Shown here piece by piece: positions 17,694 to 64,000 of a stretch of 64,000 bases of DNA. Under the pieces are notes generated by a model. The model was not told the DNA's origin and did not search any database. It saw only the letters and a program-made list of their open reading frames with translations. Both the position numbers and the translations under genes were made by a program. Where the stretch lies: assembly GCA_951406725.2 (NCBI GenBank), contig OX597815.1, positions 192,448,001 to 192,512,000 on the forward strand, written 5' to 3'. The DNA is from Octopus vulgaris. Its lineage: Eukaryota. Within the stretch, counting starts at the first letter, position 1, and every line of letters starts with the position of its first letter.

Positions 17694-17739
17694 AACACAA
17701 CGTTTCGGCTGATATACCCTCCAGCCTTCATCAGGTGTC
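17694..17739 (-). ncRNA. Minimal type-I hammerhead ribozyme motif (Penelope type)
   Basis: GACAC-CUGAUGA-A-GGCUG(loop)CAGCC-GAAA-CGUU-GUGUU: stem I GACAC/GUGUU, 5-bp stem II, palindromic loopless helix III AACGUU. Confidence 0.65.
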
Positions 17740-26562: not shown

Positions 26563-27052
26563 GGTATTAATTTTCTACATACACAATGACTTAATCGAAG
26601 AAGAGAAATTACTGGAAATTGTAACATTCAAATCAATTGCATTGAAATTAAAAGTGAATTAAGTTACACAGGTGAATTGCGATAGATTTTACAAAGAATC
26701 GAAAGTAGCACACAAGACAAGCTTACTAATGGAGTAATAAAAGAGTAGAAGTCGGAATGTGATGTGTAACATCGTTTCAGTGTCAAACTCTGTTTTCCTT
26801 TTTATTTCTTTTCTCGTGAATCTCTTTCGTTTCGTGTCTCTTCTTCTCTCTGTGCCTCACACTGATTCTATCTTTCTATCTCTTCCACGCTTTCACACAC
26901 ACGTTTTATCTCTCATTTTTCTTATATGACACACTGTATACTCAGTATATCTTGGAATATTGGTTTCAAATTTTACCACAGAGTTAGCAAATTTGGATAA
27001 AGGTTTAAGTTAATTACATCGCCATCCGTGCTCAAATGATACTTATTTTATC

Positions 27053-27444
27053 GGTGGAGGCGCAATGACCCAGTGGTTAGGGCAGCGGACTCGCGGTCAT
27101 AGGATCGCGGTTTCGATTCCCAGACCGGGCGTTGTGAGTGTTTATTGAGCGAAAACACCTGAAGCTCCACGACGCTCCGGCAGGGATGGTGGTGATCCCT
27201 CCCTGCTGTGCTCTTTCACCACAACTTTCTCTCACTCTTACTTCCTGTTTCTGTTGTACCTGTATTTTCAAAGGGCCGGCCTTGTCACTATCTGCGTCAC
27301 GCTGAATATCCCCGAGAACTACGTTAAGGGTACAGGTGTCTGTGGAGTGCTCAGCCACTTACACGTTAATTTCACGAGCAGGCTGTTCCGTTGATTCGGA
27401 TCAACCGGAACCCTCATCGTCGTAACCGACGGAGTGCTTCCACC
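27053..27444 (+). mobile_element. SINE family B, full length (copy 1 of a tandem pair)
   Basis: GGTGGAGGCGCAATG...GGAGTGCTTCCACC; flanked by 106-bp direct repeats. Confidence 0.92.
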
Positions 27445-27550
27445 ATATCTTGGAATATTGGTTTCAAATTTTGCCACAAAGTTAGCAATTTTCGGTAAAA
27501 GTTTAAGTTAGTTACATCGCCATCTGTGCTCAAATGATACTTATTTTATC

Positions 27551-27938
27551 GGTGGAGGCGCAATGACCCAGTGGTTAGGGCAGCGGACTCGCGGTCATAG
27601 GATCGCGGTTTCGATTCCCAGACCGGGCGTTGTGAGTGTTTATTGAGCGAAAACACCTGAAGCTCCACGACGCTCCGGCAGGGATGGTGGTGATCCCTGC
27701 TGTACTCTTTCACCACAACTTTCTCTCACTCTTACTTCCTGTTTCTGTTGTACCTGTATTTTCAAAGGGCCGGCCTTGTCACTCTCTGCGTCACGCTGAA
27801 TATCCCCGAGAACTACGTTAAGGGTACAGGTGTCTGTGGAGTGCTCAGCCACTTACACGTTAATTTCACGAGCAGGCTGTTCCGTTGATTCGGATCAACC
27901 GGAACCCTCATCGTCGTAACCAACGGAGTGCTTCCACC
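27551..27938 (+). mobile_element. SINE family B, full length (copy 2)
   Basis: Differs from copy 1 at only a few positions. Confidence 0.92.
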
Positions 27939-28692
27939 ATATCTTGGAATATTGGTTTCAAATTTTGCCACAAAGTTAGCAATTTTCGGTAAAAGTTTAA
28001 GTTAGTTACATCGCCATCTGTGCTCAAATGATACTTATTTTATCAGCACTGAAAGGACAAAAGACAAAGTCGGCCCCCAACGGTATTTAAACACGGAACG
28101 AAAGTTAGAAATACCCGCTAATCACTTAGCCCGACACGGTAACGATTCCAGCAGCTTGCTGCCTTGTATATCTTGGACTATTGTTTGGTTTAAAATACCT
28201 CATTTAAAATCAATATATGTGAAAAGTTAGTATGCATTTTCAAATATCATGTTTTGAATTTCGGCTTGTTTATAAATATGAAATATTCAAGAATGATACT
28301 CTATGAATCAGACTGAATTTTTATAATGATCGAAATGAATAAATAAAAATTTTTGGACATTTATTGTTCGTCTCTTTGCACTGAAACAGCCCCATATATA
28401 TACGAAAATGTGGAACGATGAAAATGAGTGCTCAGCACCGCATTGGTGGATATAATTTCTTTGTATGTGAATTAAGGCTGCTATTAGTTTCATGTTAAGG
28501 AAAGTAGGAAAATATCCTAGTGTCTTAAAAAATTTGCAAGACGATCACATGAAGTAAAGTGTTCACTTCATATACCAACATTCATGCATTTGTGTGTGCG
28601 TGTGTCTGTGTGTGTGTGTATGGGGGTGCGTGTGTGTGTGTGTGTGTATGGGGGTGCGTGTGTGTGTGCGTGTGTGTGTATGTGTGTGTACA

Positions 28693-33956: not shown

Positions 33957-34525
33957 GGCGAGATGGCAGAATCGTTAGCACGCCGGGCGAAATGCTTAGC
34001 GGTACTTCAACTGCCATTACGTTCTGAGTTCAAATTCCGCCGAGGTCCACTTTGTCTTTCATCCTTTCGGGGTCGATTAAACAAGTACCAGTTACGCACT
34101 GGGGTCGATGTAATCGACTTAATCCGTTTGTCTGTCCTTGTTTGTCTTCTCTGTGTTTAGCCCCTTGTGGGTAGTAAAGAAATAAGTATTTCGTCTGCCT
34201 TTACGTTCTGAGTTCAAATTCCGCCGAGGTCGACTTTGCCTTTCATCTTTACGGGGTCTATAAATTAAGTACGAGTTACGCACTGGGGTCGATATAATCG
34301 ACTTAATCCCTTTATCTGTCCTTGTTTGTCCCCTCTATGTTTAGCCTCTTGTGGATAGTAAACAAATAGGTATTTCATTCTGAGTTCAAATTCCGCCGTG
34401 GGATCGACTTTGCCTTTTATACTTTCGGGGTTGATAAATTAAGTATCAGTTATGCACTGAGGTCGATGAAATCAACAAGTCCCCTCCTCCAACATTTCAG
34501 GCCTTGTACCTTTAGTAGAAAATCG
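33957..34525 (+). mobile_element. SINE family C trimeric array
   Basis: One head, two type-2 units and a terminal type-1 unit. Confidence 0.88.
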
Positions 34526-45255: not shown

Positions 45256-45699
45256 AATGATTAAAATATTGTGTTTAATAAGAGTGAAGAAAGAAACATT
45301 TAACGTAAAAAGAAAAAGAAAACAAATAATAATTTTTCGTTGTTAAACCACTGTCTAATCGAAAGGTTAGAGTTTCTTCCCTTTCGGAATACTTTCCCAC
45401 TATACACTGTTTCGGATATCTATACCCCCAAACCCAGAATATCTCAATAACTACTGCTCTGGTTTACGCGAAACTTGTTTCATTCTGCTCGTATTAACAT
45501 TTCAGGGTTAACTTAATTCATAGTATTTTCCTATTATGTACCAGTTTGGCTGGGTAACATTACAAGCAAGCAAGCAAGATTCAAACTGGCTTTTAATGTA
45601 TGTATATATATATATATATATATATATAAATTAATAAATAAATAAAACATATGCATATATACATACATATATGTACGTACCTACCTCTACATGTATATA

Positions 45700-46010
45700 T
45701 ACATGCATATATGGGTACAGGACACCAAAAAAACGTCGAACACAATGAGAAACGAAAACAAACACAAAACCAAGGAAATGGACATTGTTCTTAAACAACG
45801 AAAAAATAGAGTACAGGACATACAAAACAAGGAAAATTCCCCTTCTTCAGTCGCCTTTGTTACATCTATTCCATGTTTCGAAGGTCAAGGCGATACATGA
45901 CTTTAATGAAACAATCCTTCCCGCGAAAATCAAATTTAATAAAATTTGAGATTTTTTTGCGGAGGGGTAAAAATGGTAACAAAAACAGGACAGTAACGAC
46001 AGTACAAAAT
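45700..46010 (-). mobile_element. Probable Penelope-type 3' terminal repeat carrying an atypical hammerhead-like motif (45839-45899)
   Basis: T/G-rich tail ending in TA-rich repeats, as in family G; contains CUGAAGA, GAAA and GUA core strands. Class is inferred. Confidence 0.5.
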
Positions 46011-46352
46011 ATAAACAGTAAAAGACAGGACAAGGAGAATAACAGTAACACAAACAAGAAGGGCTGTTACATATACATACATATATACATGTGTATGCGT
46101 GCGCTCGCATGTGTGAGAATCGAGTAAAACCCTTGTGGACTGCTATACGAAGTTCACCTGCGGTCATTCGTTACCTGATGTCATTATAAAGCAGTGAGAA
46201 TGTTCCTGCTACCGGATATATATCGGAAATTCCACTGTATCCGTAGAGTTTATATAAATAGATAAATGATAGGAAATGGAATTAAAGAAAATGGAAAACT
46301 TTCTATTGTTTATCATTTACTTCCATGTGTGTGAGTGTATACACAGACACAC

Positions 46353-53869: not shown

Positions 53870-54449
53870 TCTTTTATACTCTAGGCACAAGGCCTGAAAT
53901 TTTTGGGGGGTGAGAGAGCCAGACGATTAGATCGACCCCAGTACGCAACTGGTACTTAATTTATCGACCCCGAAAAAATGAAAGGCAAAGTCGACCTCGG
54001 CGGAATTTGAATTCAGAACGTAGCGGCAGATGAAATACCTATTTCTTTACTACCCACAAGGGGCTAAACACAGAGGACAGACAAACGGATTAAGTCGATT
54101 ATATCGACCCCAGTGCGTAACTGGTACTTATTTAATCGACCCCGAAAGGATGAAAGGCAAAGTCGACCTCGGCGGAATTTGAACTCAGAACGTAACGGCA
54201 GACGAAATATCTATTTCTATTTCTTTACTACCCACAAGGGGCTAAACACAGAGGGGACAAACAAGGACAGACAAACGGATTAAGTCGATTATATCGACCC
54301 CAGTGCGTAACTGGTACTTAATTTATCGACCCCGAAAGGATGAAAGGCAAAGTCGTCCTCGGCGGAATTTGAACTCAGAACGTAACGGCAGTCGAAATAC
54401 GGCTACGCATTTCGCCTGGCGTGCTAACGGTTCTGCCAGCTCGCCGCCA
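53870..54449 (-). mobile_element. SINE family C trimeric array
   Basis: Head, two type-2 units and a terminal type-1 unit. Confidence 0.9.
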
Positions 54450-58587: not shown

Positions 58588-59159
58588 TTCTTTTCTACTA
58601 TAGGCACAAGGCCTGAAATTTTGGGGGAGGAAGCCAGTCGATTAGATCGACCCCAGTACTTAATTTATCGACCCCGAAAGGATGAAAGGCAAAGTCGACC
58701 TCGGTGGAATTTGAACTCAGAACGTAATGGCAGACGAAATACCTATTTCTTTACTACCCACAAGGGGCTAAACACAGAAGGGACAAACAAGGACGGACAA
58801 ACGGATTAAGTCGATTATATCAACCCCAATGCATAACTGGTACTTATTTAATCGACTCCGAAAGGATGAAAGGCAAAGTCGACCTCGGTGGAATTTGAAC
58901 TCAGAACGTAATGGCAGACGAAATACCTATTTCTTTACTACCCACAAGGGGCTAAACACTGAAGGGACAAACAAGGACGGACAAACGGATTAAGTCGATT
59001 ATATCAACCCCAATGCATAACTGGTACTTATTTAATCGACCCCGAAATGATGAAAGGCAAAGTTGACCTCGGCGGAATTTGAACTCAGAACGTAACGGCA
59101 GACGAAATTCGGCTACGCATTTCGCCCGGCGTGCTAACGTTTCTGCCAGCTCGCCGCCT
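58588..59159 (-). mobile_element. SINE family C trimeric array
   Basis: Head, two near-identical ~183-bp type-2 units and a terminal type-1 unit. Confidence 0.9.
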
Positions 59160-63375: not shown

Positions 63376-64000
63376 AATTTTACTCAGAATATTGATGTTC
63401 CTGAGAACCGATTTGAGAAACATAGATCCAAAATTCAAATTACGCTTACAAAACATAGCCGAGAGAGCCAAACTACACACAAACTCACCAGTCCTACAGT
63501 ACACAAAGAAACGACAAAATTAACGTACAGGCAATGAGTAGATAGACAACCGACAACTGATGAAGGGTCGTTCTTTAAGTTACTTGTCCTGTTTTCCATT
63601 TGTTTCTCTCGTTTGCGTATTGAACTCATTTGTCGTATTTTATGTTTACTGTCGGTGACGTCCATTATTTATATTTTATCAGATCCGTCATGATTTCATT
63701 AATTAATTTCTTTAAAATTGATTACTTAAAATTTAATCAATTAATCGCATCGTAGTGAAGGCTCCGATGTCTTGCCAATATGGTTTACTTTGCATCAAAC
63801 GTCAGTGATGGTCATTATGATTTATGCCAATCCTTACCGAAACGCTCAATCTCGTTCTCCACAGAAGTAAGAAAAACTTTCTAAATGTTTCAATAAGTCA
63901 ATCAAAGCAGAAGCGATGCGTAATTCTAGCAGGTTTTCCCAGATTGGTAAAAATCGATATGCTTCGCAAAATCGCAGGCTGTTGACTGTATGTAAAGGAA

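Follow-up and report, generated by a model that had tools for sequence, protein, structure and literature searches.

A 64,000-nucleotide stretch of the Octopus vulgaris genome (the window) carries on its minus strand what is likely a self-cleaving hammerhead ribozyme, borne by a non-coding mobile repeat. Its core is predicted to be normal, except that the chain would be open at A9/G10.1, where two helices would close the break. Non-circularly permuted hammerheads were previously known from viroid-like environmental RNAs only, and CUGAnGA was assumed to stay joined to helix II; the split-core variant would break this assumption and is abundant in an animal genome. Moreover, it supplies a descriptor for genome scans, a prediction that can be tested cheaply at the bench and a natural case of helix insertion at A9/G10.1 that ribozyme engineering could use.

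The motif and its repetition in the genome

Read along the minus strand, the motif begins with CAUGU-A (45899-45894), which comprises the helix III 5′ strand (45895-45899), ending in the G-U of the cleavage triplet, and H17 (45894). There follow the helix I substrate strand UCGCCUU (45893-45887), a 3-nt link joining helices I and II, CUUC (45883-45880), GAAA (45879-45876; with the helix III 3′ strand, 45872-45879), AAGGCGA (45857-45851) and CUGAAGA (45850-45844), the last two being the second strand of helix I followed by C3-A9 (45844-45857), and finally a single A and GGGG (45842-45839). Each of these segments and the 3-nt link lie where the original prediction had placed them, helices I and III are in register, and the core bases CUGAnGA, GAAA and UH are all present. 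As had also been claimed, the strand order falls outside any circular permutation of types I, II and III: these share the cyclic order CUGAnGA > GAAA > cleavage site and an unpseudoknotted core, and here the order is reversed. By analogy with known hammerheads, cleavage is predicted 3′ of H17, that is after A45894; this base is A in the window copy, C in subfamily B and U in other families.

A descriptor made of the core with helices I and III has a single match across the window; 150 first-order Markov windows contain none. In the genome (2.8 Gb, 227 contigs), the core pattern GUH > CGAAAC > CUGAnGA with n other than A has 3268 matches versus 95 for the reversed pattern, and its counterpart with n = A has 2577 versus 48, giving ~5800 exact-core matches for the two; the window motif is, on these counts, a real repeated feature. 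A third pattern yields 376 matches versus 288 in its control. Fifty of the 3268 matches were retrieved for comparison; the retrieved matches form several families with helix I strands that differ and yet stay complementary, the conservation of the core across them being partly built in, as they were found by the core pattern. A scan against Rfam returned no hammerhead among the 150 listed of 438 matches, and those listed were AT-repeat microRNA artefacts only.

The competing second GUA pointed out in the original prediction does exist (45863-45861), but it is private to the window copy and absent from all 29 other closest copies. The window copy differs from these by four changes, one of which, U45862, creates the GUA and breaks one pair of helix IV. 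A type II reading through this triplet was rejected both for its being private and because no helix I is available to it.

Helix II and the predicted opening of the catalytic chain

Helix II had been proposed as GGGG/CUUC, with one extra A separating GGGG from CUGAAGA. This pairing can be drawn, but the upstream strand GAAGG (45916-45920, G10.1 being 45920) pairs instead with CCUUC (45880-45884, C11.1 being 45880), which follows a linker of 2-3 nt, and the extra A with GGGG (AGGGG, 45839-45843) forms the 3′ strand of a helix V, whose 5′ strand is CCCCU upstream (45963-45967; pair probability 0.98, 4/5 pairs). The earlier assignment is probably wrong. Since AGGGG pairs with the upstream CCCCU beside a hairpin ending at G10.1, the catalytic chain is predicted to open between A9 and G10.1, with two extra helices inserted there.

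The choice between the two strands rests on other families and on energies. Among 96 exact-core copies (loci L001-L110 with one duplicate locus omitted, core-changed copies being excluded by the pattern), which represent about six families, at least 4/5 Watson-Crick pairs are reached in 80 with the upstream strand and in 2 with the downstream strand; when the 17-position search was repeated at two control places, 4/96 and 7/96 passed. The helix reads GAAGG/CCUUC, GACAC/GUGUC, GGCCC/GGGCC and GCACC/GGUGC in unrelated families, that is, complementary pairs that differ from one family to another, and in family C 11 of 18 copies pass the test, the helix being poorly kept in many. Downstream pairing comes to only 1-2 consecutive pairs in families C and E, and is impossible in loci L141 and L167, because no G lies within two bases after CUGAUGA; helices V and VI form there. 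Duplex energies for the window copy are -4.6 kcal/mol for the upstream helix II, -7.4 for helix V and 0.0 for GGGG/CUUC. Within the window's superfamily helix II is nearly invariant (4/5 pairs unchanged), so that the alignment cannot choose between the models, and GGGG/CUUC pairs there in 98.5% of cells over 17 rows. Of the three helices whose covariation had been put forward as a check, I and III covary in the alignment, and II does so only across families.

Additional helices and predicted overall fold

As first described, the motif lacked helices IV, V and VI as well as its host element. Helix VI is a hairpin (45921-45962) with its 3′ end abutting G10.1, and helix IV pairs 45906-45913 with 45858-45865. 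Hammerheads with additional helices, among them one whose core bears an extra stem, were reportedly described by Weinberg et al. in 2015.

In an alignment of 17 superfamily members 10 of 24 pairs change on both sides, against 0-2 in slid controls; the rows are related, which leaves few independent events. The changes fall in helix I (4, out of 5 counted pairs), helix III (3 of 5), helix VI (2 of 4) and helix V (1). The last is the first pair of helix V, which goes from U-A to G-C in 3/17 rows of one lineage; between families its pairs are different altogether (CCCCU/AGGGG, GCCCCG/CGGGGU, AAGACA/UGUCUU, GGGG/CCCC and UUUCCAUA/UAUGGAAG). Helix IV was left uncounted because of alignment gaps, and its support comes from inspection and search: its strands differ among families yet stay complementary. 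An alternative helix IV with a U-rich strand downstream was rejected, as it is broken in subfamily B, where pairing with the upstream partner persists. In nested folding, the window copy forms helices V, VI, IV and III. Folding z-scores of five copies range from -1.3 to -3.4, those of family A being modest (-1.8 and -1.3).

The helices as assigned from sequence and covariation run in the order V5′ - VI - II5′ - IV5′ - III5′/cleavage site/I - linker - II3′/GAAA/III3′ - IV3′ - I/CUGAnGA - V3′. In such a fold, V, VI, IV and III would provide a nested scaffold on which I and II form as pseudoknots. Besides their contact at the core, helices I and II would share an outer junction with helix IV. From there, helix IV would lead back to helix III by way of an internal loop or a bulge, thereby tying the distal end of helix III to helices I and II. 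The RNA would be monomeric in this reading and would bend sharply between helices III and IV. The III-IV junction is a kink-turn-like loop in family E, a purine-rich 4x4 loop in family A and a 4-nt bulge in family C. The family E loop, with its 3-nt bulge and tandem G-A/A-G, resembles the kink-turn pattern; a canonical kink-turn, sought by eye, fits family E and not the window's family. In family C, zero unpaired bases lie on one strand between III and IV, and this zero-length link strains the monomer.

Relation to described hammerheads

According to the available part of Eckert et al. 2023 (PMC10085705), type SGC (HRIMA-1 and its variants) has been described and validated, is known from metatranscriptomes only (583 sequences, none in a known genome) and cleaves in vitro as a monomer. 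The original prediction had left it in doubt whether its topology was new: the order cleavage > GAAA > CUGAnGA is published there as type SGC, and the split at A9/G10.1 is not in the part covered. The window motif and type SGC have in common this order, with helix I/CUGAnGA last, a link of about 3 nt between I and II, two pseudoknots in the core and a helix that joins the strand 5′ of helix I to the strand 3′ of the helix II 5′ half, thus binding the other sides of I and II (helix IV here). Unlike the window motif, SGC has an uninterrupted block C, in which helix II comes directly after CUGAnGA (0-1 base between them, helix II starting within 1-2 bases); here the helix II 5′ strand is upstream and V and VI sit at A9/G10.1. 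A further difference is the ~5800 exact-core matches in the octopus genome. By its strand order, the motif is a non-circularly permuted hammerhead variant and not type SGC as defined. In the same part of that paper block C is assumed to be uninterruptible and the search pattern demands CUGAUGA(U)G, a requirement that makes it blind to the split-core form.

With type CSG (PMC10085705) the motif shares a helix II 5′ strand leading into the cleavage-site block and then the GAAA block; in CSG, however, the block of helix I/CUGAnGA joined to helix II comes first, whereas here helix I/CUGAnGA sits at the 3′ end. To judge from strand positions, the fold may arise by opening once more the ring from which Eckert's types SGC and CSG derive, helix IV then standing where these have their stem I/II interaction helix. 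The split-core wiring was not found in the literature searched, whose scope leaves out most subscription journals; no such wiring is described in the accessible portions of the Li 2026 preprint, Cervera 2014, Forgia 2023, PMC13725137 and PMC6155905.

The host repeat

The window copy belongs to family A and lies in a 5′-truncated copy (minus strand, 45615-46069, the lower end being approximate) of a ~810-nt non-coding unit, whose 3′ end runs into (TA)n. The 40 scored of 2343 candidate copies, the window's own place excluded, are 96-98% identical. Longer copies consist of partial tandem units, with a period of 810 in locus L010 and of 774-924 in four other loci; their 5′ ends vary, some pieces are inverted, and the 3′ end is fixed at (TA)n. 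The window element has, in short, a Penelope-like insertion structure. A tandem copy in locus L032, near 734, has a 32-nt deletion between GAAAC and GGGG and loses helix I and CUGAAGA.

A diverged copy led to subfamily B, in which the triplet is GUC, a G-C replaces an A-U of helix III, and helix I survives two A-to-G changes. Thirteen fixed differences separate the two subfamilies: none is in C3-A9 or GAAA, seven are in loops, one is the A to C at H17, four preserve pairs and one breaks a terminal pair of helix IV. Changes in individual copies are not depleted at paired positions, which indicates that most copies decay neutrally.

In published systems (PMC4209133; bioRxiv 10.64898/2026.07.22.740005), non-LTR retrozymes and Penelope pLTR hammerheads likewise consist of non-coding tandem units with one hammerhead each; they are likely Penelope-dependent, and a bulged base before helix II is usual in them. 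Their hammerheads, however, are of type I, unlike that of the window, and often minimal and dimeric. No reverse transcriptase ORF was found in 60 family A/B loci, nor the Naiad ORF with N-terminal GIY-YIG and C-terminal reverse transcriptase, and an autonomous partner of family A was not found among the loci tested. A Penelope-type ORF beside locus L097 was rejected as partner, the motif occurring in 1 of 20 loci, the query's own. Pfam named none of four flanking ORF pieces; an Atlas search gave unnamed eukaryotic clusters. Penelope-type elements of a family that is both young and abundant occupy loci L171-L190; the top hits share 93-97% identity, open frames among the hits reach 936 aa, and the permuted motif is absent nearby.

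As to how the element might multiply, the RNA would cut after A45894, and two such cuts in a tandem transcript would free a unit of ~810 nt. The freed unit could then be circularised and copied by a Penelope-like reverse transcriptase back into (TA)n sites, possibly with more-than-unit reverse transcription, as proposed for Penelope elements. Four sets of contigs, presumed to derive from RNA, cover the L010 unit and dip near the predicted cut (~1634); L010 has private changes there, and contigs cannot show ends or circles.

Other families and Naiad elements

All bases of the catalytic core are kept across otherwise unalike families, two of which were found by BLAST alone, and so is the UH rule. 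Most of the 30 third-pattern loci do not parse; some belong to families already known, and about five are new and parse in full or for the greater part (L141, L154, L157, L165 and L167). In a protein search, family E lies downstream of reverse transcriptase C-terminal fragments, in sense direction, at 13 of 30 loci, or 11 of 28 after dropping two loci first found by the motif. It is also the family E version that closes the Naiad_Obim and Naiad_Ovul consensuses given by Craig et al. in their supplement. By eye, all six helices can be assigned in five more entries within the part of the collection covered (first 7 places per term), three of them neighbouring ones with a coral label; on this parse, the wiring ends Naiad consensus sequences, including ones further from cephalopods, which show two versions, one of them being that of the three coral entries.

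In the available text of Craig et al. 2021 (PMC8557442), Naiads are found without a canonical hammerhead, and some of the consensuses holding this wiring at their 3′ end are flagged 'HHR_half_core'. If our reading is true, it would explain the apparent lack of a hammerhead in Naiads as compared with other Penelope-like elements. Partial tandems, inverted 5′-truncated pieces and (TA)n targets are shared by Naiads (same source) and the window element. Unlike them, the latter lacks an ORF, and its DNA does not clearly resemble the Naiad-like loci tested, against which the family A unit gave only one AT-rich 85-nt match. Family A is young, whereas cephalopod Naiads are described as remnants, which counts against the explanation preferred here.

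Family C is located in a 3′ UTR, ~400 nt beyond the end of a non-LTR ORF that bears restriction-endonuclease-like motifs (loci L072, L074 and L075). From its motifs, we take this element to be HERO-like. The family C core is nearly identical to one entry in the accessible Naiad part of the Craig supplement, which hints at ribozyme exchange between element classes. Taken as a whole, the odds seem to lean slightly towards a wider proposal, according to which this undescribed hammerhead, with A9 and G10.1 split by two helices and a ring-closed fold, would be the missing Naiad ribozyme across animal phyla, would have moved between Penelope-like and restriction-endonuclease-type non-LTR elements, and would drive circular-RNA retrozymes of ~0.8-0.9 kb in thousands of copies, invisible to all current descriptors.

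Alternative readings

The main alternative to the monomer fold is a domain-swapped dimer, in which the same six helices form but the I/CUGAnGA strand of one tandem copy completes the core of its neighbour. The units do lie in tandem, the hammerheads of Penelope elements are believed to be active in dimeric form (PMC4209133), and the zero-length III-IV links of family C would be easier to accommodate in trans. Against this, helix III is 4-7 bp long, whereas dimeric minimal forms have 1-2 bp; the entire motif is closed locally by helix V, and SGC monomers cleave in vitro (PMC10085705). In family E, the kink-turn-like loop would give the bend. On balance we regard the dimer as improbable, roughly one chance in several.

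Rather less probable still is a hammerhead-derived fold that no longer cuts, its role being to let the reverse transcriptase recognise the RNA or prime on it. Two helices at A9/G10.1 are indeed far more than known insertions, Naiads are said in the available part of Craig et al. to spread without canonical hammerheads (PMC8557442), and the fixed 3′ end of the repeat lies ~280 nt downstream of the predicted cut and not at the cut. Against such a fold stands the retention of all catalytic bases and the UH rule in families as unalike as those above; in the families listed, H17 is A, C or U.

An ordinary type-SGC hammerhead, with helix II formed by GGGG/CUUC right after CUGAAGA-A, fits the published SGC order, the 3-nt linker and one extra base and can be drawn in 17/17 superfamily rows, but is very unlikely, as two of its four pairs are G-U, none changes on both sides, and it is impossible in L141, L167 and the coral Naiads, its bases being occupied by helix V. 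With fair confidence, the monomer with an opened core is the reading that we prefer.

Other elements in the window

The window also holds canonical minimal hammerheads of type I at 17734 (-), 17996 (+) and 18706 (+), the first two forming an inverted pair. All three have one extra A between A9 and G10.1, the site at which the permuted form has its two helices. At 63535-63575 (+) lies the 3′ half of another permuted motif, similar to that of locus L081, with the GAAA and cleavage blocks absent. Tandem repeats of 184-190 nt at 34011-34467, 53924-54399 and 58656-59108 make up one SINE-like family, presumably akin to octopus SINEs. Finally, a unit of 494 nt is present in 2.2 tandem copies at 26947-28044, with 97% matches.
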